From Bacteroidota bacterium (GTDB lineage Bacteria; Bacteroidota; Bacteroidia; 2-12-FULL-35-15), in the NCBI GenBank assembly GCA_025363555.1, contig JANYDQ010000024.1, positions 1 through 63,953 of the forward strand: a stretch of DNA of 63,953 bases, given 5' to 3'. Position numbers and translations under genes: made by a program. Every line of letters starts with the position of its first letter. The stretch's first letter is position 1. The notes beneath the pieces are model-generated. The model was not told the origin of the DNA. It worked only from the letters and a program-made list of their open reading frames with translations, and searched no databases. This document shows, piece by piece, positions 8,694 through 54,959 of this stretch.

Positions 8694-9350
8694 ATGTTAG
8701 ACAAAGTTGGAATTGCAAAACGCATTGCAAAAGAAATTAAGGATGGTTATTATGTGAACCTGGGAATTGGGATTCCAACACTGGTAGCTAATTATATTCC
8801 GAAAGGAATAAATGTAGTGCTTCAATCAGAAAATGGATTGCTTGGAATGGGCCCATTTCCTTTTGAAGGGGAAGAAGATTCGGATTTGATAAACGCTGGA
8901 AAACAAACTATAACTACTGTTCCCGGTTCTGCCTTTTTTGATTCGGCAATGAGTTTTGGAATGATTCGCTCGCGGAAAGTGGATTTAACTATTCTGGGCG
9001 CAATGGAAGTTGCCGATAATGGTGATATTGCCAATTGGAAAATTCCGGGAAAGATGGTGAAAGGTATGGGAGGTGCAATGGATTTAGTTGCTTCTGCAAA
9101 AAATATTATTGTGGCGATGCAACATGTGAACAAAGCAGGTGAATCGAAACTATTACCAAAATGCGAATTACCTTTAACCGGAGTTCGGTGCGTAAAAAAA
9201 ATTGTAACCGAATTAGCAGTACTTGATGTTACCCCAGAAGGATTCAAATTATTGGAACGTGCTCCGGGTGTGAGTGTGGAACAAATAAAAAATGCAACTG
9301 GGGGGAGATTGATAATAGAAGGGGATGTGCCGGAGATGGTGATTGATTGA
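8694..9350 (+). CDS. scoB: CoA transferase subunit B
   Basis: VNLGIGIPT, SENGLLG (catalytic Glu region), and MGGAMDLV. Confidence 0.85.
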   Translation: MLDKVGIAKRIAKEIKDGYYVNLGIGIPTLVANYIPKGINVVLQSENGLLGMGPFPFEGEEDSDLINAGKQTITTVPGSAFFDSAMSFGMIRSRKVDLTILGAMEVADNGDIANWKIPGKMVKGMGGAMDLVASAKNIIVAMQHVNKAGESKLLPKCELPLTGVRCVKKIVTELAVLDVTPEGFKLLERAPGVSVEQIKNATGGRLIIEGDVPEMVID

Positions 9351-9391
9351 ATTACTCATTGCTTGGTGGAACGCCTTCCGGTGAAAGGGTA

Positions 9392-11218: not shown

Positions 11219-11254
11219 TATAGTTCAATAATTCTTTTCAATTTATTTATTAAA

Positions 11255-13345
11255 ATGCAATTATCGTTTATTAATAATATTTGCAGTCGAACAGACAAGA
11301 ACAAAAGCCTGATTGTTCTGTTATTTTTTATTGTCTTTTTATTTGTCGGCTTATCAATTTATAAAGATTACGGCTTATCCTGGGACGAGGGTACACAGCG
11401 CTCATCAAACGGGTATGTTAATTACAATTTTATTAGATATTATGCCAAAGATCCACTTTTAAACGGATTAGACAAATATCACGGACCCGCCTTTGAACTT
11501 GTTCTTGTTATTGTTGAGAAAATTTTCCATCTTTCCGATACCCGTGAAATTTATTTTATGCGGCACCTCCTTACATTTCTTGTGTTCTTCATTTCCTCTC
11601 TGTTTTTTTATTTACTTGCTTTAAAATTATTTAAAAATTGGAAGCTTGCATTCATCGGGGTTTTGCTATATGTGCTAAGTCCCCATATTTTTTCTCATGC
11701 TTTTTATAATTCAAAAGATTCGATTCTGCTTTCGTTTTTTACCATCAGTATTTATTTACTGATTATGTTTCATGAACGGCAAACTTATTTTTTAGCATTT
11801 ATGTATTCATTTGTGGCTGCCTTCACCATTGATGTAAGAATAGTGGGGATTGTTTTACCTGCCATTTCTTTTCTGTTGCTATTAATTGAACTTGTAACTG
11901 CAATTTGCAATAAAAGAAAACCTGAAATTAATGGTAGTGTGCTGCTGTTTTTTTTATTGCTAATTGCTTTTATCATTTTATTTTGGCCTGTTTTGTGGTT
12001 AAATCCTGTTCATCATTTTCTGGAAGCATTAAAAGAAAACAGCAACTATTATTGGAATTACAAAATTCTTTACTTCGGAAAATATACGTCAGCGCATGAC
12101 TTACCCTGGCATTATTTAATTTTCTGGATTTTTGTTTCTACTCCTGTGATATACTCCGTTTTGTTTCTTACGGGCGCGATATTTTATTGCCAACTGTTTT
12201 TTGTGAAGCCATTTCAATTTGTAAAAGAAAAGAAAAACGAAATGGTAATTTTTATTTGGTTTTCTCTTCCATTAGCGGCAATTGTTTTATTCAAAAGTGT
12301 TGCTTTTGATACCGGACGGCACATGTATTTTATTCATGGAGCATTTATTTTAATTGCAGTTGGTGGCGTTCAAACATTTTATTCGTTGTTTAGAAAAAGA
12401 AAAACGTTTCTTTACTTTTTTAATATTGTCTTGATTTGTTCTTTTGCTGGTGTCATTTATAAAATGATTATAATTCATCCATACGAGCAGTTGTATTTTA
12501 ATGAAGCAATGGGTACTGACATGAATAAAATCAGTACTAACTTTGAAATGGATTACTGGGGCTTGGCTGCCAGGGAAGTTTTAGAAAACATTTTAGCAAA
12601 AGATTCATCATCCAAAATAACACTTTATTCAGAAAATTTTCCTGGAGAATTAAATGCTCAAATTTTATTACCTCTTCAAAGAAAAAGAATTGTTTATACA
12701 AACATTATTGAAAAAGCAAAATACTATATGGCGGATTACAGATGGATTAGAAAGGGGGGATACCCTTATAGTAAAGAGTATTATTCAGCCACTCTTGGTA
12801 ATGCATGTCTTTATACAGCGTTTGTTGTGCGACAAAAAGGAGAAGGATATTCAAAAACGCGAGGCAAAGAACTTATCACTTCGGTTGCTGATTTTGAGAA
12901 TAAGAAAGAGAACAACTGGACGTTCGATAGAATTACAAAACCAAATTCAGCGGCTCACTCGGGTATGTTTTCAACATTCGTGGATAGTGCAAATGAATAT
13001 AGCAATATGTATATATTGCCGACAACCGAAATACTGTTAAATAAAAAAAATGTTGTTCTAAAAACTTCTTTTTGGAAATATGAAACGAAGTCGGGTTCTG
13101 ATGCTAAATTTGTGGTTAGTATTGAATCCAAAAATGGAACATCTTATTTTTGGCAAACCATTAATGAAATATGTACAAAAGAAAAAACATCGGAGTTTGG
13201 ATGGGAAAAAATAACGGGCGAGGTTGATTTACCTGAAATACGATCAAATGGAGATATAATAAAAGTCTATTTGTGGAATGTTGGCAAAAAGCAAATTTTT
13301 ATGGATGATGTGGAAATTCATTTTGTTCAGGAAGCTTATAATTAG
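11255..13345 (+). CDS. GT39/ArnT-PMT_2-like membrane glycosyltransferase (group B) with C-terminal jelly-roll/CBM-like domain
   Basis: First-loop LSWDEGT, then YHGPAFE, and many TM spans. C-terminal AHSGMFSTFV ... KVYLWNVGKKQIFMDDVEIHF. Confidence 0.6.
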   Translation: MQLSFINNICSRTDKNKSLIVLLFFIVFLFVGLSIYKDYGLSWDEGTQRSSNGYVNYNFIRYYAKDPLLNGLDKYHGPAFELVLVIVEKIFHLSDTREIYFMRHLLTFLVFFISSLFFYLLALKLFKNWKLAFIGVLLYVLSPHIFSHAFYNSKDSILLSFFTISIYLLIMFHERQTYFLAFMYSFVAAFTIDVRIVGIVLPAISFLLLLIELVTAICNKRKPEINGSVLLFFLLLIAFIILFWPVLWLNPVHHFLEALKENSNYYWNYKILYFGKYTSAHDLPWHYLIFWIFVSTPVIYSVLFLTGAIFYCQLFFVKPFQFVKEKKNEMVIFIWFSLPLAAIVLFKSVAFDTGRHMYFIHGAFILIAVGGVQTFYSLFRKRKTFLYFFNIVLICSFAGVIYKMIIIHPYEQLYFNEAMGTDMNKISTNFEMDYWGLAAREVLENILAKDSSSKITLYSENFPGELNAQILLPLQRKRIVYTNIIEKAKYYMADYRWIRKGGYPYSKEYYSATLGNACLYTAFVVRQKGEGYSKTRGKELITSVADFENKKENNWTFDRITKPNSAAHSGMFSTFVDSANEYSNMYILPTTEILLNKKNVVLKTSFWKYETKSGSDAKFVVSIESKNGTSYFWQTINEICTKEKTSEFGWEKITGEVDLPEIRSNGDIIKVYLWNVGKKQIFMDDVEIHFVQEAYN

Positions 13346-13443
13346 AAAATGATTCATTGATTTTTCTGTTTTCTTCAAATCATTTTTCTATTTTTGACGA
13401 TAAACAATTATTTAACTGATTTAATCTTTATAAATATTACATA

Positions 13444-14163
13444 ATGTCAATATCCAAATTATCTATCATTATTCCTGCTTATAACGAAGCGGCTACTATT
13501 CATTTTATTTTAAATAAAGTAATTGCAGTTAAATTAATTAATGATATTGAAAAAGAAATTATTATTGTGAACGATTGCTCGAAAGACAAAACACAGGAAG
13601 TGATTGAAACATATATCAAAGAACACGGTGAGTTTAATATCCGGTTGTTTAACCAGGAATATAATCAAGGGAAAGGTGCTGCGCTGCACAAAGGAATTTC
13701 TCTGGCTACAGGAGAATATTTGATAATACAAGATGCCGATTTGGAATACGACCCGGAAGAATATAATATATTGTTAAAGCCAATAATTAATGATTTTGCA
13801 GATGTGGTGTATGGTTCCCGCTTTATGGGAGGAAAGCCACATCGTATTTTATTTTTCTGGCATACATTAGGAAATAAGTTTCTTACTAATCTTTCCAACA
13901 TGTTTACCAATCTGAACTTATCTGATATGGAAACATGTTATAAATTATTTAAAACCGAAATTATACAAAGCATCAAACTAAAAGAAAACCGTTTTGGTTT
14001 TGAACCCGAAGTAACTGCCAAAATTTCCCGTGTTCCTAAAATAAGAATTTACGAAGTTGGTATTTCTTATTATGGACGAACTTATGAAGAAGGAAAAAAG
14101 ATAGGATGGAAAGATGGTTTCAGAGCTATGTGGTGTATATTGAAATATAATCTTTTTTCATAA
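13444..14163 (+). CDS. family 2 glycosyltransferase, polyprenol-phosphate sugar synthase type (DPM1/GtrB/ArnC-like)
   Basis: [42 protein letters not shown] (DXD), and YGSRF.. in a 239-aa soluble protein. Confidence 0.75.
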
Positions 14164-14178
14164 CTATTTTTTCAACTT

Positions 14179-16176
14179 GTGAAAACCCTTAATAATATTG
14201 AAAAAGCATTTGGGTACATAAGTACTAATGTTTGGCTACTACTTTTTGTTATAGCCAATTTTCTTCTTAAAACCTTTCAAATTTCTTCCCAGAGTTTGTA
14301 CGGAGATGAGCCCTATAGTATATTCTGCGCTCAACAATCTATAAATGATTTAATCCCCGTTTTTTTAACAGACCAAAATCCACCTTTACATATTTCTTTA
14401 TTACATGTCTGGATGAATCATTTTGGAATTACAGATGTTTCAGCTAAAATGTTATCTGTTACCTGTAGTGTTTTAGCAAGTGGAATTTTGTTTTTGTTTG
14501 CAAATAAATTTATAGATAAAACAACTGCCATTTTTGTTTCTTTTCTTTTTTTGTTTTCTAATTCACAGCAATACTTTGCTACTGAAGTACGTCCTTATGC
14601 ATTAATTCAACTTTTGTGTATTTCCTCTTTTTATATTTATTATTTACTGCTTATTAATCCGAAATTAAAACACCTCTTCTTTTTATTTATTATAAATCTC
14701 CTGTTAATTTTCACTCACTATCTTACCATTTTTGCCTTTGTTGTTCAGTTTTTAGGTATATTATTTTATTTCAGAAAAAACAGGAAAACGGTTATTTATT
14801 ACTTTATCAGCCAGGTAATGGTGATACTCGTATTACTCCCCTGGCTAAAAATTGCTTTTTCAAATATTCCCAAAAATGGGGCGTTCTGGAATACAATACC
14901 GAACTATTTTGCCTTCAGATGGCATGTTAATATTTTATTAGGAAATGAAGTATTGTATTATGTATTTAACGGGATAGTAATTTGTTCTGTATGTTTATTT
15001 CTGTTGAACAAAAAAATTAATGTATTTAATAAAATTTTTAATTGGAGGTATTATTTAATTTTTCTTCTGCTGTATATTTTACCAATACTATTGAATTTTA
15101 TTGTTGCCCAATATTCGCCCGTATTTACAACCCGGTATTTTCTTTATTCATTATTCGGTTTGTTTTTATTTGTTGCGTATTCTTTTAGTAGCTTAAACAT
15201 TCATTCTGTATTTAAAACTATTTTATTTTTACCGTTCCTTTATCTCCTGTTTACGTCATTTCTTGTGGTCCAGGAACGGCAGGACGATTGGAAACATATA
15301 GTTCCGGACATAGTAAAACTTAAAAAGCCTAATACTTTAGTTTATATATCTGCATCTTATAAATATAAAGACTTTTCGTTTTATTATGACATTGATGCCT
15401 TTAAAGATTATCAGCATACTATTGACCGTCTTGCCAAAGAACATGTTTTTGTTACCCCAATCAATGAATCGAAAGGGTGGGAAAAATTAAATTTCAACTT
15501 AATTCAAAATGTTATTTATGTACAGGCACATAGCCAGTTTGAAGATTCGTTAAATCAAATAAAACCTTATATCGTAAATAAAGGATTTACCGAATGCAAT
15601 CATTTTCAAAAAGGCGGAATACAATATACTGTATTTATTCGCGATACTATGGAATGTTATTCGGCAAAAATAACATCAGAAAATACAAGTGTCGGTTGTG
15701 ATTTATTAGAGCATTATAGTGGCATACATGAAACGACTGATTCTGTTGAAATTTACAAAACCTCTTTTGAGTATCCCGAAAATTGCCCGGCTTACCAGGG
15801 AATAACTGACAAGATAAAATATACAGGAAACCATTCTTTCAGAATAAATGAAGCAAATCAATTTGAATTAGGATTAATAAAACCTAAACATGATTTATTG
15901 AAAAACAAAAAGAATATAAATGTAGCCGCCTATGTTAATGTGGAGGAGGGAAACGATGGTTGGTTAATTGTTTCGGTGGAGAAAGGGCCCCTTACTTTAT
16001 TCAGAAATAATATCTATCTGAAGGAAAGTATTAAAGTATATAATAAATGGCAGAAAATAACTTTGAGTTCTCTTATTCCTGATGATGTACCGGATGATGC
16101 CGTAGTAAAAATATATTTCTGGAACCCGGGGAAGAAAAATATTTTTGTTGATGATTTTTCAATCCAGGTTTTTTAA
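14179..16176 (+). CDS. GT39/ArnT-PMT_2-like membrane glycosyltransferase (group B) with C-terminal jelly-roll/CBM-like domain
   Basis: First-loop YGDEPYS and multi-span topology. The C-terminus KIYFWNPGKKNIFVDDFSIQVF matches 11255 and 9392. It uses a GTG start, with no in-frame ATG near the N-terminus. Confidence 0.6.
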   Translation: MKTLNNIEKAFGYISTNVWLLLFVIANFLLKTFQISSQSLYGDEPYSIFCAQQSINDLIPVFLTDQNPPLHISLLHVWMNHFGITDVSAKMLSVTCSVLASGILFLFANKFIDKTTAIFVSFLFLFSNSQQYFATEVRPYALIQLLCISSFYIYYLLLINPKLKHLFFLFIINLLLIFTHYLTIFAFVVQFLGILFYFRKNRKTVIYYFISQVMVILVLLPWLKIAFSNIPKNGAFWNTIPNYFAFRWHVNILLGNEVLYYVFNGIVICSVCLFLLNKKINVFNKIFNWRYYLIFLLLYILPILLNFIVAQYSPVFTTRYFLYSLFGLFLFVAYSFSSLNIHSVFKTILFLPFLYLLFTSFLVVQERQDDWKHIVPDIVKLKKPNTLVYISASYKYKDFSFYYDIDAFKDYQHTIDRLAKEHVFVTPINESKGWEKLNFNLIQNVIYVQAHSQFEDSLNQIKPYIVNKGFTECNHFQKGGIQYTVFIRDTMECYSAKITSENTSVGCDLLEHYSGIHETTDSVEIYKTSFEYPENCPAYQGITDKIKYTGNHSFRINEANQFELGLIKPKHDLLKNKKNINVAAYVNVEEGNDGWLIVSVEKGPLTLFRNNIYLKESIKVYNKWQKITLSSLIPDDVPDDAVVKIYFWNPGKKNIFVDDFSIQVF

Positions 16177-16212
16177 CTGTCAGGAAAAATAATTCGTTTT
16201 AATTATATAATT

Positions 16213-18021
16213 ATGAAAAAAATATTCTGGACATTATTAGGAACTCTTTTGCTTATTGGTGCAGCCCTTTATAATCAATTTCCGTTAGTAACTTCCGATA
16301 GTGGTACATATATTTTAAGCGGGTTTAAATTTTTTATTCCTGCCGACCGACCTATTGTTTATGGTTTATTTGTTCGCCATTCCAGCTTAGCTGTAAGTTT
16401 ATGGTTTACCATTATTTTTCAATCGCTTATTCTTTCTTATTTACTTTGGCTTACTTTAAATGAATTTGCAAATTCATATGTAGGAAGAACAGGAAAGTTT
16501 TTTATTATTACTTTTCTTGTTTTGTTTACAGGCATAAGCTGGTATTCGAGCCAAATAATGCCCGATGTTTTTACTTGTATTGGTATTCTTGCTTTCGCTT
16601 TACTTTTATTGTCCGAAAGCTCTTTAGGGAAAATAGTTCTTCTATCTGTATTTTTTGTGGGAGCCGCATTAATGCACAATTCTAATAGTGTTATCTTTTC
16701 TTTATTATTAATACTTGTATTGCCATTTGCTATTACTACCAAATTATTTCAAAACAAAATAATTAAAACGCGAAGATTTGTTTTGGTTTTAATTTTAATA
16801 ATTAGTGCATGGCTATTAGCCCCAACCATTAACTATTCTATAAAAGGAGAATTTAAAACTGCAGGCAATCCGCATGCTTTTTTAATGGCTAAATTTATAG
16901 AGAATGGCGCTGTTGACCATTATTTGAATGACGTTTGTGATAGCAGCTTAATAACTTCTATACCCGATTCGGGCTTATATTTAATTAGTCCGAAACATAG
17001 TGAAAAATTTATTGACGTGGAAGGGTTCAGCAAAGCCAATGGAGCGATTATACATCAATGGGATTATTTAGGAACAGAAAACCAACAATTTTATATTATT
17101 AAAGTGTCGAAAGGATATTATAAAATTATTTCTAAAAACAGTAACAAGTGCATAGAGGTTTCAGAAAAAGATACAACCAGTTTAGGCGCACCCCTCATTC
17201 AAAATGATTACAAAGGGAAAGACAATCAGTTATTCAGTTTTAGAAATATAGACAATAAAGATTGCTGGTTTATAGAAAATAAAAAAAGTAAAAAATTACT
17301 GGATATTTCAGGAATAAGCAATGATAACGGTGCAGCCGTTAATCAGTGGAATTTTACAGGAGCAGAAAATCAGCAATTCAGAATTGTAAGATACCCTTAT
17401 TGTTTATGTTTATATAAAGATAAGCTTCCTAATTCGGCTGTTGCCTTTTTATGGGAAAACAATGGTGTGTTTGCTAAAACAGGGGCATGGGCATGGAGTG
17501 AAAATGAATATAAAAAAGTGTTAAGCGACCTTATGTTTTCTCCTAAATATATAGGAATTACTATTGGTGATGCTCTTGTTTCAACTTTGCAACAGTTAAC
17601 ACAAATAGATATTGGAAGCGGGCTTGGAGGATATGACAAAAACAGTTCTCCATACGTAGCAATTGCCAATTGTTTAAAATATGAATTAAAACCTTTTAGC
17701 AATAGCAAGGAAAACAGGTGGGCATTGAATTTTACAGAAATAAATAACAGGAACTTCTGGATTATCGTTTTTTCAATGATTATTATTATTTGCTTCTTCA
17801 AAATTCCATTACTAAGAAAAAGCATCCTGCAACCATTTATAGTATTTATTTATATTTCTTTTTCGGCAATTGTTTGCAATGCATTTGTTACCGGGGCACT
17901 GGCAAATGTTTTAGACCGGTTACAATGTCGCGTGGTTTGGTTTATTCCTATGATTGCGTTGATTTTACTGTGTAATTATTTTATTCCTGTCATTAAAAAG
18001 CATAGATTTTTTAATGAATAA
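16213..18021 (+). CDS. polytopic membrane protein with an internal ricin-B-type beta-trefoil lectin domain
   Basis: TM-rich residues 1-215 and 510-600. The central soluble insert has three (QxW)-like subrepeats: NGAIIHQWDYLGTENQQFYIIKV, GAPLIQNDYKGKDNQLFSFRN and NGAAVNQWNFTGAENQQFRIVR, each preceded by KCIEV/LLDI-type strands. Confidence 0.6.
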   Translation: MKKIFWTLLGTLLLIGAALYNQFPLVTSDSGTYILSGFKFFIPADRPIVYGLFVRHSSLAVSLWFTIIFQSLILSYLLWLTLNEFANSYVGRTGKFFIITFLVLFTGISWYSSQIMPDVFTCIGILAFALLLLSESSLGKIVLLSVFFVGAALMHNSNSVIFSLLLILVLPFAITTKLFQNKIIKTRRFVLVLILIISAWLLAPTINYSIKGEFKTAGNPHAFLMAKFIENGAVDHYLNDVCDSSLITSIPDSGLYLISPKHSEKFIDVEGFSKANGAIIHQWDYLGTENQQFYIIKVSKGYYKIISKNSNKCIEVSEKDTTSLGAPLIQNDYKGKDNQLFSFRNIDNKDCWFIENKKSKKLLDISGISNDNGAAVNQWNFTGAENQQFRIVRYPYCLCLYKDKLPNSAVAFLWENNGVFAKTGAWAWSENEYKKVLSDLMFSPKYIGITIGDALVSTLQQLTQIDIGSGLGGYDKNSSPYVAIANCLKYELKPFSNSKENRWALNFTEINNRNFWIIVFSMIIIICFFKIPLLRKSILQPFIVFIYISFSAIVCNAFVTGALANVLDRLQCRVVWFIPMIALILLCNYFIPVIKKHRFFNE

Positions 18022-18066
18022 TTTTTTATCTGAAGTGAAAACAAAAACAAACTTTACCATTTTTGG

Positions 18067-19803
18067 ATGAACACTTTAAAAGCCATTTTTGAATTTTCTG
18101 TCAAGTATGTTTGCGAACTTGTTTTACTTATTTGCCTTGTTATCACTTTTTATCAGCAGATAAATAACGACAAGTGGAAACAAATTATCCGGTCGGATGG
18201 TTTGGGTTATTATGCTTATTTGCCGGCAGTTTTTATTTATCACGATTGTAAGTTTGAATTCTTAAAAGAGATAGATAAAAACTACAACATGAATCAGTAT
18301 TCCGGTGGGATGATAAAATCAACTCCCCTTGGCAAAGTAAATAAATTTTATGTTGGATTAAGTATTTTTTGGCTGCCATTCTTTTGGCTCGCTCATCTTT
18401 TTACTTTATTTTCGGGAGGGGTAACAGATGGTTATACTTATTACTATCAAATTTTTATTGCTATTGCAGCTAATTTTTATTTGTGGTTAGGGTGTAAATT
18501 TACAAGACGGTTAATTATAAAATATGCTGTTTCCGAAAAAATTTCTGCATTTATTATTTTATTAATTGTGTTTGGAACAAATCTTTCGCACTATGCAACT
18601 TACGATTCAAATGGAACACACGTTTATTCGTTTGCGGCTATTGCGGCTTTTTTACTTTCCAGTCATTCTTTTTTTGAACATCAAAAAAGTAAATATCTTT
18701 ATTGGTGTGCCTTTCTTATCGGGATAATATTTCTTTTGCGCCCATCTAATATATTAGTGATTATACTGTTTCCGTTTTTTACTACGTCATTATATACATT
18801 TATAACATGTATTAAATCACTGAAAAAAGAAATCGCAATTTGTTTTTTAATATTTTTGATTACTATTGTTCTTCAATTTATTTTTTATTTTTTACAAACC
18901 GGGCATTTTATAGTTTGGTCGTATGATGATGAAACATTTAATTTTAGTAAGCCTGAATTTTTAAATGTTCTTTTTAGCTACCGCAAAGGATTGTTTATAT
19001 ATGCTCCTTTAATTTTAGTATCGCTTTCCGGGCTTTATTTTTTATTCAAAAAAAATAAATTTCAATTTTCAGTGCTGTTATTCTTTCTTCTTATTAGCTG
19101 TTATATTATTTCCAGTTGGTGGTGCTGGAGTTACGGATGTTGTTTAGGGCAGCGTTCTTTTGTAGATTATTCAGCCATTTTTGCATTATTATTTTCGTTT
19201 TTGTTTTTGGGCATTTCAAAAAGCAATTATTTAAAAGCATTGTTGTTGGGTTCAGCTCCTCTTTTTATTTTTTATTCAATGATGCTTTCTTTTCAATTTG
19301 AACATAATATTATTAGCTGGGATGAAATGAACAAAGAAAAATTTTGGGCAGTTTTTATGAAAACAGGTGCAGAATATGAAGGGCTTACATCCTCCAAAGG
19401 ATTATTTTCTGGCAATGACGAATACCACCCGGTTTCTATTAAGGCGGCTAACAATTTATTTTTATGTGCAGATGAATTTGTTTCAGACCAATTTATTATG
19501 GTGAATAGAAACGCAAGCCAGGCATGGGAAACATTCAACCTTATAAATGCAGGTGATAATAAAGTTGCTTTTAAAACATATCGTGGAAATTATATTTCTG
19601 CACGATTGGATTCCGGAAGTGTGATTAAATATTCTGTGAATAAATTAAACAATTGGGAAACATTTGAAATGATTCCGTTCGGAGATAAAATAGCCCTCAA
19701 GGCATGTAATGGTAAATATGTATCTTTAAACGGAGACAGGCTTTTTGCCAATTCTGATTGTTTATCAGGTTCCAACTGCTTTTTTACATTGGGGGTAAAA
19801 TAA
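18067..19803 (+). CDS. polytopic membrane protein, GT-C-like (group A paralogue) with C-terminal fascin-like beta-trefoil domain
   Basis: SDGLGYYAYLPAVF, IVWSYDDETFNFSKPEFLNVLFSYRKGLFIYAP and SSWWCWSYGCCLGQRSF. C-terminal VSIKAANNLFLCADE..AWETFNLINAGDNKVAFKTYRGNYISA..NNWETFEMIPFGDKIALKACNGKYVSL. Confidence 0.6.
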   Translation: MNTLKAIFEFSVKYVCELVLLICLVITFYQQINNDKWKQIIRSDGLGYYAYLPAVFIYHDCKFEFLKEIDKNYNMNQYSGGMIKSTPLGKVNKFYVGLSIFWLPFFWLAHLFTLFSGGVTDGYTYYYQIFIAIAANFYLWLGCKFTRRLIIKYAVSEKISAFIILLIVFGTNLSHYATYDSNGTHVYSFAAIAAFLLSSHSFFEHQKSKYLYWCAFLIGIIFLLRPSNILVIILFPFFTTSLYTFITCIKSLKKEIAICFLIFLITIVLQFIFYFLQTGHFIVWSYDDETFNFSKPEFLNVLFSYRKGLFIYAPLILVSLSGLYFLFKKNKFQFSVLLFFLLISCYIISSWWCWSYGCCLGQRSFVDYSAIFALLFSFLFLGISKSNYLKALLLGSAPLFIFYSMMLSFQFEHNIISWDEMNKEKFWAVFMKTGAEYEGLTSSKGLFSGNDEYHPVSIKAANNLFLCADEFVSDQFIMVNRNASQAWETFNLINAGDNKVAFKTYRGNYISARLDSGSVIKYSVNKLNNWETFEMIPFGDKIALKACNGKYVSLNGDRLFANSDCLSGSNCFFTLGVK

Positions 19804-19859
19804 TAAAGTAACTTATATAAAAAAAAAAGCTGTTTTTGTTATTGACAGTAGATTAAACA

Positions 19860-21440
19860 ATGAATAAAATAATTAATAAATCAGAATTCCTTTTTTTTAT
19901 TTTAGTAGTACTGTTAAATCTTTCTCCCGTTTTATCTACTAACTATTTTTGTACCCTTGATGGTGGCTCACACGCCAACAATGCACATATTATAAAAACC
20001 CTGTTAACTTCTTCTCACAGTATTTATTCTGATGTATATAAAATAAATCCCGAATTAGTTCCAAACTGGTCGGGGCATTTCGTATTGGCATTTCTAAGTT
20101 TATTCTTTGCCAATTATGTGTCAGAAAAAATCTTGGTCTGTTCCATTTTAATACTTATCCCGTTTTTTTTCAGAAAAATTGTAAAACTCATCGCTCCCGA
20201 TAATGCAGTGATGTGTTACCTTATTTTTCCCTTTACCCATTATGTGCTGTTATATTTAGGGTTCTTTAATTTTACCATCGGCATTTTATTCTTTTTTATT
20301 ACTGTTTATTTTTATTTAAAACATTCTCTTAATTTTAAATGGCAACACTATATTATTCTCTTCCTTTTATCAGGAGCACTTTACTTTTCCCATCTTTTTG
20401 CTTTTGTCGTTACTATATTTTATTTAGCATTACATTCATTTTTTGTTGCCTTGTTCGATTCTGAAAATACGTTTTGGTATCGTTTGCGAAAAAAAACACT
20501 TCCGGTACTTTTGTGCTCGCTTCCATTTCTGTTACTTACTATAAACTATTTTGCCAACCGACCACCAAAACCTCCCAGCCAGGTTTCCTTTTTACCTGCC
20601 GAAAGAATATGGGTAATGATTAGAGACGGTTATGTTTTTTCGATAGATAATATAGCAGAAAGACCTTTCGCCAGATTGTTTTTCTTTGTACTCATCGTTT
20701 TATTTTTTGTTGTACTTATTAAAGGCATTATTTTCTTTTTCAACAACCCGGACAAAAAGAAGATGGTATGTTTATTTTTTAAAAAACCAGTTTCCTCTTT
20801 CCTGGTACTTGTTATCTTTTTGTTGTCTATGACGTTTGTTTTTCCCGATGGTGACGGGTACGGAGGATTTATAACTTTGCGTTTTATTTATTTTGCAGTT
20901 CTGTTTATGTTATTATTTTCATTGGAGTTAAGTTATTCAGGAAAAAATTTCAATATCCTATTACTGTTTATTGTCGGTTTTTCGTATTTTAATTTAACAG
21001 ATTTTCGTACCAATCAAATTATGTGGACCAATAATGAGCGGCATCAGCTCGAAAAGGCATTTGAGAAAATTCACACTAATTCTTCTTTGTTAACTTTCCG
21101 GCTGCAAAAAAATGACAACTGGTTTTTAGGCCACTTTATGGAATATGCCGGAGCGGATAAAGACATTCTGATATTGAATAATTACGAAGCAGCCGAAAAA
21201 TATTTTCCTGTTATTTATTTGGAAAATAAAACAGCAAAATATACAGCGGGAGAATTCAATCTTTTCATGGGGCAAACATTACAGGGAACTAATGATACCA
21301 TTAAAAAAAAGATAGATTATGTTTTAATATATGGTTTAAAAAATGAAGATACCGAATATACCCAAATGGTGAAAAGTATAGGAAATGAATATAACCTTGT
21401 TTACGATTCGCCACGGGTAAATTTATTTAAGAAACAATAA
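19860..21440 (+). CDS. polytopic membrane protein (possible GT-C-like), unknown function
   Basis: 526 aa with about 10 hydrophobic spans and a soluble C-terminal roughly 150 aa. Co-oriented with the preceding membrane glycosyltransferase-like genes. No recognisable catalytic motif. Confidence 0.45.
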   Translation: MNKIINKSEFLFFILVVLLNLSPVLSTNYFCTLDGGSHANNAHIIKTLLTSSHSIYSDVYKINPELVPNWSGHFVLAFLSLFFANYVSEKILVCSILILIPFFFRKIVKLIAPDNAVMCYLIFPFTHYVLLYLGFFNFTIGILFFFITVYFYLKHSLNFKWQHYIILFLLSGALYFSHLFAFVVTIFYLALHSFFVALFDSENTFWYRLRKKTLPVLLCSLPFLLLTINYFANRPPKPPSQVSFLPAERIWVMIRDGYVFSIDNIAERPFARLFFFVLIVLFFVVLIKGIIFFFNNPDKKKMVCLFFKKPVSSFLVLVIFLLSMTFVFPDGDGYGGFITLRFIYFAVLFMLLFSLELSYSGKNFNILLLFIVGFSYFNLTDFRTNQIMWTNNERHQLEKAFEKIHTNSSLLTFRLQKNDNWFLGHFMEYAGADKDILILNNYEAAEKYFPVIYLENKTAKYTAGEFNLFMGQTLQGTNDTIKKKIDYVLIYGLKNEDTEYTQMVKSIGNEYNLVYDSPRVNLFKKQ

Positions 21441-21697: not shown

Positions 21698-21705
21698 TAC
21701 ATTTG
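21698..21705 (+). promoter_or_regulatory. Bacteroidota -7 box candidate (TAnnTTTG) for the XRE gene
   Basis: TACATTTG lies 30 bp upstream of the ATG at 21736. A second match, TACTTTTG, is at 21681-21688. Small inverted repeats (AGCGATT..AATCGCT, TTTGTAA..TTACAAA) lie nearby. Confidence 0.3.
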
Positions 21706-21735: not shown

Positions 21736-21996
21736 ATGACAGGAGTGAATGTACGAGGGAAATTAATTCGTAAACGGAGAGAAGAAAAAGGGTTATCACT
21801 TTTAGACGTGGCAATAAAAATAGGAAAGTCGGAATCTTATATGAGCAGAATTGAAAACGGAAAAATTAATTTGACAGAGCAATATGAACTAATGATTGTT
21901 ATTATTTTGTGGGACTATTTGGAACATTATCAAAATGAATACGCAACACTTTTCAGGAAAGAGGGCTTGGATAAAAAATTTTTGTACCTGAAATAA
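21736..21996 (+). CDS. XRE-family helix-turn-helix transcriptional regulator
   Basis: GKLIRKRREEKGLSLLDVAIKIGKSESYMSRIENGKINLT is a canonical HTH_3 pattern. The last 7 codons already belong to the 21-bp array. Confidence 0.7.
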   Translation: MTGVNVRGKLIRKRREEKGLSLLDVAIKIGKSESYMSRIENGKINLTEQYELMIVIILWDYLEHYQNEYATLFRKEGLDKKFLYLK

Positions 21997-22353
21997 AAAT
22001 AGTTTTTTAAACTTAAAAAACAATTTTGAAGCAAGAATAAATGATTTTTGAAAGCTGGAAAATCATTTTGTAGCAAAAAGAAATCATTTTTTAAACTTAA
22101 AAAATAATTTTGTAGTAAGAATAAATGATTTTTGAAAGCTGAAAAATCATTTTGTAACAATAATAAATTATTTTTTAAACTTAAAAAACAATTTTGTAGT
22201 AAGAATAAATGATTTTTGAAATGTAGAAAATCATTTTGTAGTAATAATAAATCATTTTTTAACCTTAAAAAACAATTTTGCAAGAAGTAAAAATAGTTTT
22301 TTAAAAGTAAAAAATGATGTTGTAACAATAAAAAATGAATTTTAAACGTAATA
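21976..22353 (+). repeat. tandem array of 18 units of exactly 21 bp, organised as four 84-bp super-repeats
   Basis: Every unit begins AAA(T/C)NATTTT. Examples: aaatcattttttaaacttaaa / aaacaattttgtagtaagaat / aaatgatttttgaaagctgaa / aaatcattttgtaacaataat. Super-repeats at 21997, 22081 and 22165 are roughly 90% identical, and the one at 22249 is more diverged. The array ends 36 bp before the ATG at 22389. Confidence 0.9.
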
Positions 22354-22388
22354 ATAAATTAATATAAACTAAATAACACTAAAATAAA

Positions 22389-23081
22389 ATGGCAGATTTA
22401 ACCTTTGTAGAACCAACAGACCCAAAATTCAGCTTGCAAATATTGAAATTTGCAAACCGATTACCTACTTATTCGGCAATAGTAGGAGTAACCACAGCCG
22501 AAAAAAACAGCGCACTGGCAGATGCCGTATTTTTTGAATACGTTGTAAGCTGGATGGGTGTAAACCGTGCTTTTTCGGTTAGTTCCACTTCTTATAAAGA
22601 CCTTGCCAGGGTTCAAATTGGTGCAGAAGTGCTTCCTGCGGTGCCGCCCACCCCGGTGGCAGATACTCCTCCGGCATTGGTGGAGGCAGGAATTCAAAAG
22701 AGGTTTACTGATTTGGCAGAGCGGATTAAAAAATCTCCGAATTATACTTTTACAATAGGTGAAGCATTAGGAATTGCAAAATCGGTTGCGCCTTTTGTTC
22801 CCGGAGACGGCAAACCAATATTGAAATTGACATTGGTAGAAGGAGGTTTTCCGCAAATTGGATATAAAAAAGGAAAATATCAAAGTTTGATGATTCAGAA
22901 AGAAGACAAAGATGGGGTAATGAATTTATTAACTATTTCTGTTCCTGCAAAATATGTGGACAAAGCAGATATGCCGCTTCAGGGAGTTACTAAAAAAGTG
23001 AAATACAAGGCTATCTATATGTATAAAGGGGCACCGGTGGGCGAATGGAGCGATGTTTTTACAATTACTGTTACGGGGTAA
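22389..23081 (+). CDS. hypothetical protein, Fn3-tail family paralogue 2
   Basis: 230 aa with no signal peptide. It has an N-terminal helical region, the P/T-rich linker AVPPTPVADTPPALVE, and a C-terminal beta-sandwich ending KYKAIYMYKGAPVGEWSDVFTITVTG (Fn3-like Y.Y....G.WS motif). Confidence 0.6.
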   Translation: MADLTFVEPTDPKFSLQILKFANRLPTYSAIVGVTTAEKNSALADAVFFEYVVSWMGVNRAFSVSSTSYKDLARVQIGAEVLPAVPPTPVADTPPALVEAGIQKRFTDLAERIKKSPNYTFTIGEALGIAKSVAPFVPGDGKPILKLTLVEGGFPQIGYKKGKYQSLMIQKEDKDGVMNLLTISVPAKYVDKADMPLQGVTKKVKYKAIYMYKGAPVGEWSDVFTITVTG

Positions 23082-23105: not shown

Positions 23106-23139
23106 AAAAAAGTTCTGTGTAAATGCAGAACTTTTTTTT
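23106..23139. terminator. bidirectional rho-independent terminator between convergent genes
   Basis: AAAAAAGTTCTG (23106-23117) pairs with CAGAACTTTTTT (23126-23137). A-run on one side, T-run on the other. Confidence 0.7.
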
Positions 23140-23149
23140 ATTTATAGAC

Positions 23150-24922
23150 TTATTTTACCGCTTTCAAAACAGTTGCTGTTAAATTTAACAGCTTCATTTT
23201 TTTATCTCCATCAATATACACATACGACAGGATTTCATAGTTTTTATTATTTGCCTGTGGCGGAATTAAAACGGATAAATCTATTGGGGCTTTTGTGTTT
23301 TTAATGTCCGAATAATTAAAATCGCGGGAACGGTATTTATATAATTTTCCATCTTTATTAATAACAGTAACTAAATGGGCAGTTATGTCAGATGATGTGT
23401 TTGCGGTATTGGTATCTGCCATTACGGAGGTTATTAAATAATTATCCTGCACATCGTATCCCAAATTTGCGGTCACTGTTATTGATTTAGAAAAAGCAGT
23501 ACCGGCATTTAACAGAGCCGAACTTTCGTTTAGTGATAAATTGCTGCTATATACTTTGTCATATTTTAATGAAAGATTCAGTGCATCTTTGCCATCTGCA
23601 TATTGAGCAGGTTCCAGCCATCTTTTGTCTTCCTCGGTTGCTTCGCCTTTTAAAAATACTCTCCAGTAATATTCTTTAGTGGTAAGAGTGGTATGTAATA
23701 TCCCGTTTTCCGCCTGGTGGGTTTGAAATAAATTAAGATGAATAATAACCAAACTCAATACTAATGCAGTAATTACAACAAGTTGTTTTTTTAACGAAAG
23801 GTAATGAATGAATGCTGCTAACGGAAAAGCCATAAACACATAGCTTTCTACAAAAGGTCGCTGTGCAAACGAACCACCATACCACCAGCAATCCCAGCAG
23901 GAAACAAGATAAGTGTTTACTATGAAGAATATAAAAACGGGGAGAAACAATTCGCGATGTTTTTTAAACAAACTAACAAAACCCCAGATAGCAAAGCACA
24001 TTAAGGGTGTGTACAGCAGCCATCCTTTTTTGTAACTAAATAAAACATTAAGTAAATGTGGTTTTGATAATTGTATTTTTTCGCCCGGATAACTATAAAA
24101 CAACCATTGCCCGGAAACCGATTTCCAATAAATAAGTTGAGGAAGAATAACCAGGAAAGCAACACCGCCAATAACAAAGAGATGATAAAATTTATGTATG
24201 AAAAGTTTTATTCTTGCCCTCATAGAATCTAAACTCCACACCTTCCATAACAATGGAATAATAACTACTACAGCACTTGTAGGGCGAATAAGTACTGATA
24301 TGCCAATACAAAAACCAATGGTTATAGCGTATTTTAATTTTTGAACTTCATACCATTTAATGGTGTTATAAAGCATGATGGCAAAAAATGTAAAAATAAA
24401 ATTATGAGGCATCAATCCGTCATAAGCTGTCATTACAAAATAATTGCTTCCAAACACCAGCAAAGCAATGGTAGCAAAAACAATGGTTTCGCTGAAATAA
24501 AGAGAAAGAATTTTAAATAAATAATAAATACCAAGCAAGGAAAAAAACAAAGCACAGAGCATCATCATCCATTGGTAAGGAGGCGAAAACCCATCTCTGT
24601 CGAAATGAAAGAGCATTGCCATAAAATCGGCAACAAAAAAGAAAGGGGCATATACAAAGGATAAACCCATGGTATATTTCATAACCAATTTATCTTTCGG
24701 TCCTTTGTATGCCTGGTAAAATCCTTCGGTGGTATGATATTTTTCTATAATAGGATTTAACCACACTTCTTTTTTTTCTAAATGTATATCATCATAAATA
24801 AACTGGGCAGGCAGATAGAGATAATAACCAAACACATCCCAATCGAGCCGGGTATGGCGTTTTGAACTATTGAAAACAAAAACGCATAAAAAAAATAAAA
24901 TGAAAATGGATTTCCGTGTCAT
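23150..24922 (-). CDS. polytopic membrane protein, GT-C-like (group A paralogue) with divergent C-terminal beta-rich domain
   Basis: WDVFGYYLYLPAQF, LFYSYPGEKIQLSKPHLLNVLFSYKKGWLLYTP and SCWDCWWYGGSFAQRPF. The C-terminal roughly 170 aa are soluble. Confidence 0.6.
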   Translation of the reverse strand: MTRKSIFILFFLCVFVFNSSKRHTRLDWDVFGYYLYLPAQFIYDDIHLEKKEVWLNPIIEKYHTTEGFYQAYKGPKDKLVMKYTMGLSFVYAPFFFVADFMAMLFHFDRDGFSPPYQWMMMLCALFFSLLGIYYLFKILSLYFSETIVFATIALLVFGSNYFVMTAYDGLMPHNFIFTFFAIMLYNTIKWYEVQKLKYAITIGFCIGISVLIRPTSAVVVIIPLLWKVWSLDSMRARIKLFIHKFYHLFVIGGVAFLVILPQLIYWKSVSGQWLFYSYPGEKIQLSKPHLLNVLFSYKKGWLLYTPLMCFAIWGFVSLFKKHRELFLPVFIFFIVNTYLVSCWDCWWYGGSFAQRPFVESYVFMAFPLAAFIHYLSLKKQLVVITALVLSLVIIHLNLFQTHQAENGILHTTLTTKEYYWRVFLKGEATEEDKRWLEPAQYADGKDALNLSLKYDKVYSSNLSLNESSALLNAGTAFSKSITVTANLGYDVQDNYLITSVMADTNTANTSSDITAHLVTVINKDGKLYKYRSRDFNYSDIKNTKAPIDLSVLIPPQANNKNYEILSYVYIDGDKKMKLLNLTATVLKAVK

Positions 24923-24925
24923 GGT

Positions 24926-26083
24926 TTAATTATTAACTGCGTTTTCTTTTTTCAGCAAATCATACATTTGTTCAATAAAATTATACCCGCAATTAACTAA
25001 ACTCGATTCGTTATAAACAAGCACTATAAAGTCCCGGTTAAGCGTTTGCTCTTTTAAATTTAATTTAGACACCGGGTATTTATCCATACCATTAATTTGG
25101 GGCCAGCCTACTTCTTTGTTATAATACCAGTAAGCAGATTTATCACTCACCAAATTAGGGATATAACTGTCCGTGCCTATCCAGCTCCATACAAAACTAT
25201 CGCCAACCAAAAGAACATTGGGTTTTGTTTTTTGCGTATCTTTTTTAATTATCAAGTTGGGATAATACATCGGGAAAGAAGGAATATCGCGGACCAGGTT
25301 CATTGCCTGCCCTATGTCAGCATCTGTTCTTTCAGGTTGAGTAGTTTCCCTTCCTCCTGCATAATAATAATTCGGCATATCAATATGGCGCATATTTTCC
25401 ATATATTTTATTAATGTATCAGCCGCCAAAGTAGAACCATATATACTCCAATGAATTCCGCATCGCGTAAACAGTGCGTGTTTGGCAGTTGGTTTCAGTT
25501 TTAAAAGAAATTTCCTGAAATCAATATAATTTATTTTTTGTTTTTCAAATTGTTCGGTGTATGCATCATAATTACTCCTTGTTTTTTTTGAAATGTCGTA
25601 TTTGTCGGGCAGAAATTCAGAATAAAAAGCCGACTTACCCGGGGTGATTAAGAACAATAAATCAATGTTCCGCTTCTTTAATTCCGATTGAACATAATAG
25701 AGTTTGTTTACTTTATCAATTACTGCATCTTCTCCAACAAAATCTTTTCCAATAAATCCCTTTGTATATCCTGCACCAAATAAAAAGTGGTTTTTTCCTT
25801 CCTCTACATCTTTTACATTGATGGTATCGAACACAGAATACCCTATTTGATTGTGAAGGCGGGTCAAAAAGGTATGAGTATCCATGTTTTGCTCATAATA
25901 TTTCATCACTGTATCCTGGTAGTTTCCACTCAACCAGTTTTCAAGAGTAAAAGTTGGTTTTGGCATATTAACAATCCCGCCTTGCAGCGGAGTGGCGTTA
26001 AGCCACTGAAAACGGTTTTGAAGAAGTTCCCCGCAAACAGCCAGGAAAAACAAAACAAATAAGCTATGTTTAATTACTTTCAT
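24926..26083 (-). CDS. AlgX/AlgJ-like SGNH-fold protein (putative glycan O-acetyl-transferase/esterase)
   Basis: N-terminal anchor; an HW motif in CGIHWSIYG (DHHW-family-like); LLVGDSF (GDS block). Immediately upstream of, and co-oriented with, 23150-24922. Confidence 0.4.
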   Translation of the reverse strand: MKVIKHSLFVLFFLAVCGELLQNRFQWLNATPLQGGIVNMPKPTFTLENWLSGNYQDTVMKYYEQNMDTHTFLTRLHNQIGYSVFDTINVKDVEEGKNHFLFGAGYTKGFIGKDFVGEDAVIDKVNKLYYVQSELKKRNIDLLFLITPGKSAFYSEFLPDKYDISKKTRSNYDAYTEQFEKQKINYIDFRKFLLKLKPTAKHALFTRCGIHWSIYGSTLAADTLIKYMENMRHIDMPNYYYAGGRETTQPERTDADIGQAMNLVRDIPSFPMYYPNLIIKKDTQKTKPNVLLVGDSFVWSWIGTDSYIPNLVSDKSAYWYYNKEVGWPQINGMDKYPVSKLNLKEQTLNRDFIVLVYNESSLVNCGYNFIEQMYDLLKKENAVNN

Positions 26084-54557: not shown

Positions 54558-54765
54558 AGAAGTAGTTTTTTAATTTTTTTATTTATTGGACGTTTTATTT
54601 TAATGTTAGTTTATTTATACTACGTTTTAAAACGGTTTTCTTAGAATTTTTTGCTACAAATTTTATTCCAATCACCGCCTTTTTTTAACCTTACAAAGTT
54701 CCAACTATTAGGTGCAACGATTATTATATAATTTTAGGGTATTATTATAAATTGAAGGGGTAAAT

Positions 54766-54891
54766 TAGCTCCTTATATAAATATATTAGCTCCTTATATA
54801 AATATATTAGCTCCTCATATAAATGTATTTGCTCCTTATATAAATATATTAGCTCCTCATATAAATGTATTTGCTCCTCATAAATCTTGTT
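54766..54891 (+). repeat. tandem array of 6 units of 21 bp (alternating unit variants, 42-bp higher order)
   Basis: The units in order are TTAGCTCCTTATATAAATATA twice, TTAGCTCCTCATATAAATGTA, TTTGCTCCTTATATAAATATA, TTAGCTCCTCATATAAATGTA, and a decayed TTTGCTCCTCATAAATCTTGT. The array lies in the divergent intergenic region between the JmjC-like gene and engB. Confidence 0.9.
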
Positions 54892-54959
54892 TTGCTATTA
54901 ATATACTATGGACTTACCACTTTTTAAGCTAATTTCGCAAAAAAATAAGTAGAGATACC

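Follow-up and report, generated by a model that had tools for sequence, protein, structure and literature searches.

A 21-bp-phased repeat array upstream of a family of small Fn3-tail genes: a likely protein-docking control element in Bacteroidota and Verrucomicrobiota

Why should seventeen copies of a 21-bp unit stand head to tail, without a single slip of register, between a small regulator gene and the next gene on a bacterial chromosome? The question is raised by a stretch of 63,953 nucleotides from a Bacteroidota bacterium (GenBank assembly GCA_025363555.1, contig JANYDQ010000024.1, positions 1 to 63,953 of the forward strand; hereafter the window), in which the repeats separate a gene for an XRE-family helix-turn-helix (HTH) protein from the gene for a 230-residue protein with an Fn3-like tail, here called p230. 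Most likely the array is a protein-docking control element that has not been described before, rather than a product of chance or of faulty assembly. More specifically, and with confidence somewhat short of even, we read it as a helically phased multi-operator that gates the Fn3-tail gene and that, in the clade of the window, is probably bound by the XRE protein encoded at its edge. The parts of the locus are as follows.

21736 to 21996, plus strand: gene for the 86-residue XRE-family HTH protein (Pfam HTH_3, E = 1.2e-7; HTH_31, E = 1.6e-7), its stop codon abutting the array
21976 to 21996, plus strand: marginal "unit 0", in the register of the array and within the last seven codons of the XRE gene, with start motif and dyad absent
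21997 to 22353, plus strand: the array, 17 head-to-tail 21-bp units, each with a core AAAT-N-ATTTT and a variable spacer of about 10 bp
21997, 22081, 22165 and 22249, plus strand: starts of the 84-bp blocks of the array, with four unit types in fixed order
22105 to 22112, plus strand: TAATTTTG, in unit 6, an exact match to TAnnTTTG that is not kept in related arrays
22354 to 22388, plus strand: A-rich stretch of 35 nt from the last unit to the p230 ATG
22389 to 23081, plus strand: the p230 gene (230 aa), encoding an N-terminal helical hairpin (H11-32, H36-74), a Pro-rich linker and a C-terminal Fn3-like beta-sandwich

The array in the window is real and beyond chance. Tandem Repeats Finder places it at 21992-22351 with a period of 84 (4.3 copies, 84% matches, score 473), and also reports periods of 42 (8.3 copies) and 21 (16.6 copies). 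An earlier, sequence-only reading had described eighteen perfectly phased units that start inside the last seven XRE codons. The phase is indeed perfect, with zero slips in the 21-bp register counted from 21976, and the first of the eighteen does lie in register within those codons, but by hand count it agrees with the unit consensus at only about 12 of 21 positions, which leaves 17 clear units beginning at 21997. Likewise, the start motif AAA(T/C)NATTTT, attributed to every unit, is found in 13 of the 18 (unit 0 counted in) and not in the remaining five, and the AAAT-N-ATTT dyad is found in 10 of the same 18. The four-type, 84-bp super-repeat was borne out, its first three copies, put at about 90%, being 88-90% identical (74-76 of 84 positions) and the fourth 76-81%, and the distance to the next ATG came to 35 nt instead of 36. 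Units one, two, three and four places apart have mean identities of 0.59, 0.73, 0.59 and 0.85, and the higher values at even distances point to a 42-bp alternation as well. The array has a G+C content of 16.8%, and its motif is confined to one place in the window: with at most three mismatches the unit pattern is matched six times window-wide against 0.35 expected, every time inside the array, which also holds 14 of the window's 28 matches to AAATNATTTT. An independent public contig with an identical XRE gene (L001) matches the start of the array and stops within the first unit, which fits a repeat that breaks short-read assemblies, and the copy number given for the window is provisional. A CRISPR array was rejected, as the sequence-only reading had done: the units are contiguous, the "spacer" half recurs in four types, and Pfam scans of 30 longer open reading frames (ORFs), including all those that flank the array, gave no cas domain.

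What the array travels with becomes clear from the relatives of p230. The AlphaFold2 model of p230 (pLDDT 84.5) consists of a long helical hairpin, a proline-rich linker, two short helices and an Fn3-like beta-sandwich, and no signal peptide is visible by inspection. The protein has no match in Pfam, PHROGs, PADLOC, NCBIfam or the PDB sequence profiles, and Foldseek against PDB and BFVD returned only generic Fn3 matches to the C-terminal domain. Eighteen relatives came from a word-indexed search, and 2,429 representative 50%-identity clusters from an exhaustive profile search at E <= 1e-3 (293 at 1e-30), among them members from cultured Ferruginibacter albus (Chitinophagia) and from Chthoniobacterales (Verrucomicrobiota), with the source names listed for the family all reading "hypothetical protein". 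Three members used as queries had no match in IMG/VR, in 50,697 INPHARED phages or in 72,556 PLSDB plasmids, and a mobile or viral origin of the family was rejected on that ground.

The DNA around the relatives came from metagenome contigs, from GTDB genomes and, in one case, from a complete genome. Each p230 homologue open to inspection, at 30 loci in 18 distinct lineages that are not phylogenetically independent, is preceded by an array of about 6-17 units in 21-bp phase, with its end 18-100 bp from the ATG; among these loci are one in the complete F. albus isolate genome (CP083388.1) and others in Verrucomicrobiota metagenome-assembled genomes (MAGs). When 282 kb were scanned for 21-bp phasing with a stringent detector, it fired just 5' of the p230 homologue at each of the 30 loci whose upstream sequence was long enough, and their flanks gave no other signal. 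It is silent at six other loci, one of them without the gene and five with 149 bp or less before it; of these, L029 alone, where 149 bp are on hand, has some upstream sequence and no array to be seen. Furthermore, the top autocorrelation lag is 21, 42 or 63 in all 18 distinct arrays, against 8.5% of background windows. Across these loci the G+C content of the arrays ranges from 17 to 74%, protein identity ranges from 27 to 100%, and unit sequences range from AAATCATTTTGTAG.. to CATCCGTTAACGTTAACGCGT, TGYRGCAGTACA-N9, CTCTGGAGCGACGGCGGAGCG and GGGTGCGCCGTCGTTCCCGGT, with the period constant at 21 bp. That exactly 21 bp is kept over such ranges of protein identity and base composition cannot be chance. 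The units of the related arrays are these.

L005-L008: GAAATGATTTTTTAGTGGTAG-type, 11 copies
L009, L010: CATCCGTTAACGTTAACGCGT, at least 7 copies
L012: AAAATAATCATTT(A/C)CGGAAG, about 10 copies
L013: CAAAAAAATCATTCTGTTGCG, 11 copies
L014: GCACAATAATGATTATTGTGT-like, about 9-10 copies
L015: GAAGAATAAAATGAATTAGGA, about 13 copies
L016, L019: CTT(A/C)AAAAATCATT(C/T)TTCAGG, 10-11 copies
L017, L023-25: TTGCTAACCGGTAGCCAA-like, about 14 copies
L021: TCATCCGTCAAGCCTCACGAA, 11 copies
L027: CTGAATGGCTCAGCAAGCTTC, 8-9 copies
L028: GGGTGCGCCGTCGTTCCCGGT, 6 copies, 74% G+C
L030-33: GAAAAAAATCATTTTGGGGAA, 10-11 copies
L034, F. albus: TG(C/T)(A/G)GCAGTACA-N9, 14 copies
L035-37, Verrucomicrobiota: CTCTGGAGCGACGGCGGAGCG, about 10 copies

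It is with the downstream Fn3-tail gene, and not with the XRE gene, that the array is conserved. Array and gene form a module with unrelated neighbours from locus to locus and, usually, a convergent gene downstream. Gene callers translate related arrays as heptad N-terminal extensions (GDNDELL x5, GIxHPxA x8, EDSILGT x4), so the pattern reaches further, distant members of the family, and contig ends often coincide with arrays at several loci. In five proteins with such extensions (P0095, P0246, P0248, P0249 and P0252) there is in addition a common N-terminal segment, ..LRWGDPNLRWGDPSYLLEPGDPGYV..KPKKHMKRKPYLP.., set after the heptad-translated array and before the family domain; the segment may be a true additional domain or else untranslated sequence that is conserved and has been read in frame. 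One MAG carries three p230 paralogues (L016, L019 and L021), and the arrays of the first two differ from that of the third; about 15 of 20 positions of the L021 and L016 units align by hand, so these arrays are related by descent and a common core may partly reflect ancestry.

In non-coding DNA, we know of no reason for holding 21.0 bp other than that it makes two turns of B-DNA. With a coding role excluded on the grounds given below, the period is thus one of two helical turns, which sets successive units on the same face. The one-face platform of the kind bound by a dimeric HTH protein, proposed from the sequence alone, therefore stands as to its two-turn period and its mostly dyad-symmetric units. 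Specifically, the consensus of the window units has a dyad score of 5.91 of 8, against 4.70 +/- 0.31 in column shuffles, of which none in 500 reached it, and dyad symmetry exceeds column-shuffled controls (fraction reaching the observed value <=0.02) in 12 of the 18 arrays, with examples as different as AAAT-N-ATTT, CCGTCA-N4-TGACGG, GTTAACGTTAAC, TGTA-N4-TACA and CACAATAAT-G-ATTATTGTG.

It is informative to compare the arrays of L005 and L013, whose flanking genes are 95.5-97.8% identical, with 4-fold degenerate sites diverged by 4.5-9.5% and another intergenic region by 7%. The arrays have diverged by 33.8% with zero indels, and the spacer is 295 bp in each. Within the core the A-run and the T-run are constant and the central base is exchanged between G and C in 8 of 11 units, whereas spacer positions have changed in up to 10 of the 11. 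Constant arms around a flipping centre are what would be expected for a symmetric dimer on a dyad, with a linker fixed in length only. Taken as a whole, the stretch from the XRE gene to p230, including 55 bp after the array (L005:4198-4492 and L013:3706-4000), is 27-34% diverged at equal lengths.

In the clade of the window, the comparison of sequences suggests that the binder is probably the XRE protein. The order of XRE gene, array and Fn3-tail gene is kept in seven lineages of that clade (at least 48% protein identity), in all of which the XRE stop codon abuts the first unit. The overall identity of these XRE proteins is 29-53% and their recognition-helix segment, IGK..SY.S..E.G, is invariant; the core AAT(C/G)ATT is present in all seven of the arrays, and L014 and L031 combine closely similar XREs and the same core with units that are otherwise very different. 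The identification of the adjacent XRE as the binder, made from the sequence alone, is thus plausible for this clade, but it does not extend to the array as such, which tracks the Fn3-tail gene.

What follows, from the docking of a protein to which protein docks, how cooperatively and with what sign of regulation, is the arrangement that we infer. Each 21-bp unit would make two turns of B-DNA, and its dyad core of about 9-11 bp (here AAAT-N-ATTT) would be contacted by one dimer of a sequence-specific DNA-binding protein, the core being followed by a spacer fixed in length and free in sequence. With all cores on one side of the helix, neighbouring dimers could touch, allowing cooperative occupancy over the whole 360-bp spacer. 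The last units, once occupied, would overlap the promoter or 5' region of the Fn3-tail gene, and the outcome would be a steep on/off gate on that gene, acting by promoter occlusion or, if p230 is read through from the XRE promoter, as a roadblock. In this clade the protein would most likely be the 86-residue XRE encoded immediately upstream. Two further features bear on how such a gate might be transcribed.

21698 to 21705, plus strand: TACATTTG, a Bacteroidota -7-box-like exact match to TAnnTTTG, 31 nt 5' of the XRE ATG
23106 to 23137, plus strand: terminator-like hairpin and T-run of the intrinsic type, 3' of p230, closing the unit

Judged by its sequence, the first is a candidate promoter of the XRE gene, and it may serve XRE gene, array and p230 as one unit; matches to TAnnTTTG have a background of about 1.1 per kb on the plus strand of the window. 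The gap of 35 nt before p230 is too short for a full promoter and leader, so any p230-specific promoter would have to overlap the last units. Alternatively, transcription from the XRE promoter may continue through the array into p230, the interval between the two genes having shown no terminator-like site. The TAnnTTTG box at 22105-22112, to which the sequence-only reading had drawn attention, is an exact match but not a conserved feature: 9 of 14 related arrays lack such a box and the remainder have it at no constant distance from the ATG, and the idea that the -7 box is the purpose of the repeat was rejected for want of conservation. A scan for sigma-70-type promoters was uninformative, and readings of the units as sigma-54 or extracytoplasmic function (ECF)-type motifs, or as a Shine-Dalgarno sequence plus a mini-ORF, fail across the A+T-rich and G+C-rich arrays, as judged by eye only. 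At three loci with differing arrays (L016:3936-3994, L019:3936-3994 and L027:3945-4000) a common motif, TT(T/C)ATTTTTTAAC(C/T)(C/T)TAAAACC(T/A)CA, stands between array and ATG; it is a candidate core promoter or leader element of the Fn3-tail gene.

Several observations weigh against the multi-operator, and against the XRE as its binder in particular. Ten to 17 operators are far above the number in known XRE switches. The scans did not locate the position of the p230 promoter, nor is the TAnnTTTG box conserved in the arrays. Dyad symmetry is marginal or absent in 6 of the 18 arrays. Between L005 and L013, change in the array and in the 55 bp that follow is about 3-7 times as fast as at 4-fold sites; the cause may be concerted evolution, or replacement of the control region by recombination, instead of a relaxed spacer. 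Arrays without an adjacent XRE gene are found at L016, L019, L017, L027, L028, L034 and L035, and two of these, L016 and L019, have the AATCATT core in spite of it; the common core within the XRE clade could, as far as sequence goes, be due to shared descent rather than to recognition by the XRE. Finally, position weight matrix (PWM) scans of the XRE promoters at seven loci found no unit-like site that reaches the lower quartile of the array units (the best site 5' of the XRE gene in the window scores 8.6 against an array median of 15.2), and an autoregulatory operator there was rejected. Other putative regulators lie near arrays at two of the loci without an adjacent XRE gene: L027 has a small unclassified divergent protein with an HTH-like stretch, read by eye, beside a 24-bp palindrome, and L017 has a divergent TetR gene near its array.

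By analogy, the geometry is closest to plasmid iterons, repeat centromeres, tandem ARG boxes and small regulators that polymerise on DNA, and the multiplicity appears to be above that of any known XRE switch. Iterons are tandem repeats such as the seven 22-bp copies of the R6K gamma origin, and are found also in pSC101, P1, F and RK2. Like them, the arrays consist of several to many head-to-tail repeats of about 20 bp, about two turns apart and on one face, beside a co-inherited gene; direct repeats of about 17-22 bp at about two turns are indeed what is found here, with 21 bp and 17 units in the window and the same period in the homologous arrays. Unlike iterons, they lack a Rep (winged-helix initiator) gene, and neither a DnaA box nor an A+T-rich unwinding element accompanies them; they are chromosomal, in up to three modules per genome and with no plasmid homologue, have a period of 21 instead of 22, and are built of mostly dyad-symmetric units. 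Membership in the iterons was rejected, given the neighbours (XRE, p230, glycosyltransferases), the chromosomal setting and the absence of plasmid homologues. Repeat centromeres can act as autoregulatory operators, as in R1 parC (10 x 11 bp, with ParR), F sopC (12 x 43 bp, with inverted repeats) and pBtoxis tubC (with TubR). These too are many-copy phased arrays just 5' of linked genes, and they combine a dimer per unit with a protein filament on DNA and co-evolution of array and protein, features that the present arrays would have only if protein binds as proposed. The differences are that no ParA, ParM or TubZ motor gene is present, that no ribbon-helix-helix (RHH) or ParB fold was detected in p230, and that the family is absent from plasmid and phage collections; the centromere class was rejected because no ParA, ParM or TubZ domain occurs among the annotated or Pfam-scanned neighbours of the loci examined.

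ARG boxes, the targets of ArgR/AhrC, are 18-bp imperfect palindromes about 3 bp apart, or about 21 bp centre to centre. The likeness lies in palindromic operators at a 21-bp, two-turn period, with one oligomer, one face and promoter overlap as features of ArgR; the differences are that ARG boxes come in pairs and the present units in 6-17 copies, that no ArgR is present here and that the cores differ. Among phased-repeat regulators, the P2 C repressor has operators about two turns apart. It shares with the arrays direct repeats in helical register, as do other small regulators, whose cooperative head-to-tail multimers and switching are features of their own. Those that polymerise on phased direct repeats include phage 186 Apl and P2 Cox (10.1101/784983) and Streptomyces BldC (PMC5859096). 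In contrast to the arrays, the repeats of Apl, Cox and BldC are one turn apart and in 2-7 copies, and none of the proteins except the P2 C type is of the XRE/HTH_3 kind. To our knowledge, regulators of this type have no link to the Fn3-tail gene family. With the Cro-CI operators (434, lambda, SinR) the array shares an HTH_3 gene beside the presumed target, which is found in the window and six related lineages and not in seven more distant ones, and a dyad core with A/T-rich arms, the window units being dyad-symmetric sites within the range of about 9-20 bp; the L014 units, ACAATAATGATTATTGT, are reminiscent of ACAA-N-TTGT operators. However, Cro-CI operators number 2-6, against 17 here, and are not set head to tail at a fixed 21 bp, and no operator was found at the XRE's own promoter. 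A full-text literature search for a module of array plus Fn3-tail gene found no description of one.

A broader view, which we hold to be doubtful, is that array and Fn3-tail gene make up an ancient, self-contained two-part module that works by an undescribed principle, for example an array-templated nucleoprotein or an epigenetic bistable switch with a rapidly co-evolving, module-specific recognition code. Such a module would be present at least in Bacteroidota and Verrucomicrobiota, in up to three copies per genome, and what is conserved in it would be the period and the range of copy numbers, not the sequence. Other arrays of the window, the one at 1247-1477 and perhaps that at 61354-61458, would then be further instances of the principle before Fn3-tail genes unrelated in sequence. 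The features concerned are as follows.

1247 to 1477: second, degenerate 21-bp-phased array of about 11 units, ending about 50 bp before the 183-aa ORF
1528 to 2079, plus strand: 183-aa ORF with no Pfam match, 3' of the second array
61354 to 61458: five 21-bp units, ..ATCTTTAATTGCAGAT, strongly dyad-symmetric, about 200 bp 5' of the 255-aa ORF
61657 to 62424: 255-aa ORF with no Pfam match, its C-terminus GKTAYFRVCYES..RSVYSAICKAVI like the last-strand pattern of Fn3

Homologues of the 183-aa ORF (P0272-P0275, 210-240 aa) have three N-terminal helices and a Pfam fn3 domain (29.4 bits), the same architecture as p230, and the ORF in the window lacks their last 28 or so residues. The two groups have no significant similarity (hhalign E = 0.2) and only the motif "NPNYT" in common. 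The downstream gene had been called a "paralogue" in the sequence-only reading, a term that could not be upheld: BLAST, hidden Markov models (HMMs) and hhalign were all non-significant, window paralogues of p230 or of the XRE were rejected by BLAST and family HMM, and the other Fn3-tail gene is a structural analogue at best. A mechanical ORF at 61153-61557, across the repeats of 61354-61458, is probably spurious.

It is also worth asking whether the platform serves some other protein, either the Fn3-tail protein itself or an unlinked factor, or carries a structural nucleoprotein complex of an iteron-, centromere- or decoy-like kind that is not simply concerned with transcriptional control. We regard this as unlikely. 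Consistent with it, p230 is the only universally linked gene, the paralogues within one MAG carry different arrays (L016 and L019 versus L021), array and gene are a free-standing unit with unrelated neighbours, and the geometry is known from iteron and centromere arrays. On the other hand, p230 has no recognisable DNA-binding fold (no RHH, HTH or ParB match), and the family's isoelectric points (pI) lie around a median of 6.1, no segment being consistently basic. By eye, the N-terminal 60 residues of the L019 and L021 proteins look very much alike, and yet their arrays differ. Thus p230 as the DNA binder was rejected on its acidic-to-neutral pI, the lack of a DNA-binding fold and an N-terminus that does not track the type of array. 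Nor is there a Rep, ParA, ParM or ParB gene nearby, or a homologue among the plasmids, phages and IMG/VR sequences searched.

A role at the level of RNA, which we think quite improbable, would make the array an intercistronic spacer or 5' leader of the p230 mRNA that binds an RNA-binding protein or ribosomes (at mini-ORFs) or folds. The XRE gene and p230 have no terminator between them, the distance from array to ATG is short (35 nt in the window, 18 nt in L015), and the cores of some A+T-rich arrays yield ATGs in an A-rich context that open mini-ORFs. Many arrays also fold more stably than shuffled sequences, with z of -4 to -8, but z is about 0 in L015, L034 and L031, which leaves no universal structure, and the window cores give A-U stems of only four or five pairs. 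By inspection the G+C-rich unit consensi have no ATG on the plus strand, no Rfam match was found at E <= 1, and an exact spacing of 21 nt has no known rationale in RNA.

Alternatively, the array could be a contingency element, that is, a tandem repeat of variable number (VNTR) in which gain or loss of 21-bp units or of 42/63/84-bp blocks varies the expression of p230 and the two-turn unit keeps the flanks in phase. Blocks of 42, 63 or 84 bp at 85-90% identity are indeed recent block duplications, the L004 array contains a scaffold gap, contigs often break at the array, L030 has a 64-bp deletion at the proximal edge, and poly-C tracts lie just 5' of the arrays in one MAG. This explanation also has little probability in our view. 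Independent assemblies have equal spacers, namely 295 bp in L005-L008, 306 bp in L031-L033 and 325 bp in L035 and L036 (with agreeing gene spacing in L037), and L005 and L013, different at 34% of positions, differ by zero units, although all these are short-read consensus assemblies, which could hide variation in copy number. Moreover, units only 59-85% alike are poor substrates for slippage.

As to the L030 deletion itself (L030:3934-3960 compared with L031:3870-3960), it is found in that assembly alone among four with an identical P0010 protein, and what is lost, between short ATTTTG direct repeats, is the last unit together with 43 bp of unique promoter-proximal sequence. The poly-C tracts belong to a Chitinophaga-labelled MAG, in which one lies just 5' of the array at all three p230 paralogues (L016:3645-3675, L019:3668-3700 and L021:1-100). 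They contain 9-11 C in L016 and L019, where a GTCC..GGAC hairpin follows, and a long C-run in L021 that stands at a contig end and is possibly an artefact; the homopolymer may be phase-variable.

Intrinsically curved, A-tract-phased DNA acting like an UP element, without a specific protein, is very improbable. A- and T-runs do recur at fixed phase in the window units, and L005 and L013 are moderately curved by prediction (ratios of 0.72 and 0.62, against 0.92 for shuffles). However, the window array, for which strong planar curvature had been predicted from the sequence alone, has an end-to-end to contour ratio of 0.909, against 0.920 +/- 0.057 for shuffles and 0.938 +/- 0.043 window-wide, so that prediction was not sustained. 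Nine other arrays are straight, including all the G+C-rich ones, which have no A-tracts. These ratios are from a wedge model in which phased and unphased A-tract controls gave 0.25 and 0.997, as expected.

That the array is coding, as a 7-residue repeat protein, or an assembly artefact has a negligible probability: although 21 bp make seven codons, one frame is open across the window array (a mechanical 132-aa ORF at 21930 to 22328, minus strand, with LLLQNDF-like heptads, which we judge not to be a gene) and gene callers call or extend ORFs through related arrays, no strand or frame is open in all homologous arrays, since L005, L012, L015 and L026 are stopped in all six frames, the window is closed on the plus strand, L021 is open on the plus strand only, L016 and L019 in plus frame 2 only, and the open frame of L013 sits in another register relative to the core, and, as regards an artefact, independent projects have yielded homologous arrays in 18 lineages, a complete isolate genome among them, and an independent contig agrees with the start of the array.

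If the multi-operator reading is right, there exists a large unnamed family of small Fn3-tail proteins, each under a long phased operator array in which sequence turns over and geometry is frozen, and it would offer a natural case of extreme operator multiplicity, giving control of an ultrasensitive or all-or-none kind, in phyla about whose transcriptional regulation little is known. It would likewise be a system for studying the co-evolution of a regulator's specificity with its repeated target. A 21-bp-phased array 20-100 bp 5' of an ATG could then be used as a genomic signature for finding the family and its relatives. On the practical side, the arrays break short-read assemblies and yield spurious ORFs and N-terminal extensions in gene calls. 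The window array alone would be a curiosity; the surprise is that the exact period is kept across two phyla despite complete turnover of sequence.

The setting of the window is chromosomal, with genes for GldH, PBP1 and the delta' subunit of DNA polymerase III. On either side of the locus (9347-21440 and 23150-26083) lie PMT_2/ArnT-like membrane glycosyltransferases, a GT2, a ricin-lectin protein and an AlgX-like SGNH protein. This glycosyltransferase island, which the sequence-only reading gave as the setting of the array, is partly retained in L004-8, L012, L014, L015 and L031 and not in more distant loci, and is thus a trait of the window's clade only. In the most distant array inspected (L028:2142-2300, whose neighbours are PEP-CTERM and PATR), an inverted unit comes after the six direct ones and forms with the preceding unit a perfect inverted repeat of about 16 bp. 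Two further 21-bp repeats of the window stand apart from Fn3-tail genes.

54720 to 54905: third 21-bp array, ATTAGCTCC(T/C)(T/C)ATATAAAT(A/G)T, about 7 copies at 90-94% identity, preceded by two looser units
4934 to 5032: 21-bp (7-codon) repeat CGGAACACCAAAACCTAATAC, 4.7 copies, within a PSP1-domain gene (3681-5120)

The third array lies between a cupin/JmjC-like gene (53670-54557, minus strand) and a gene for an EngB/YsxC-type GTPase (54960-55565, plus strand); no Fn3-tail gene is linked to it, and the dyad symmetry of its units is non-significant. The repeat in the PSP1-domain gene is coding and unrelated to the intergenic arrays.

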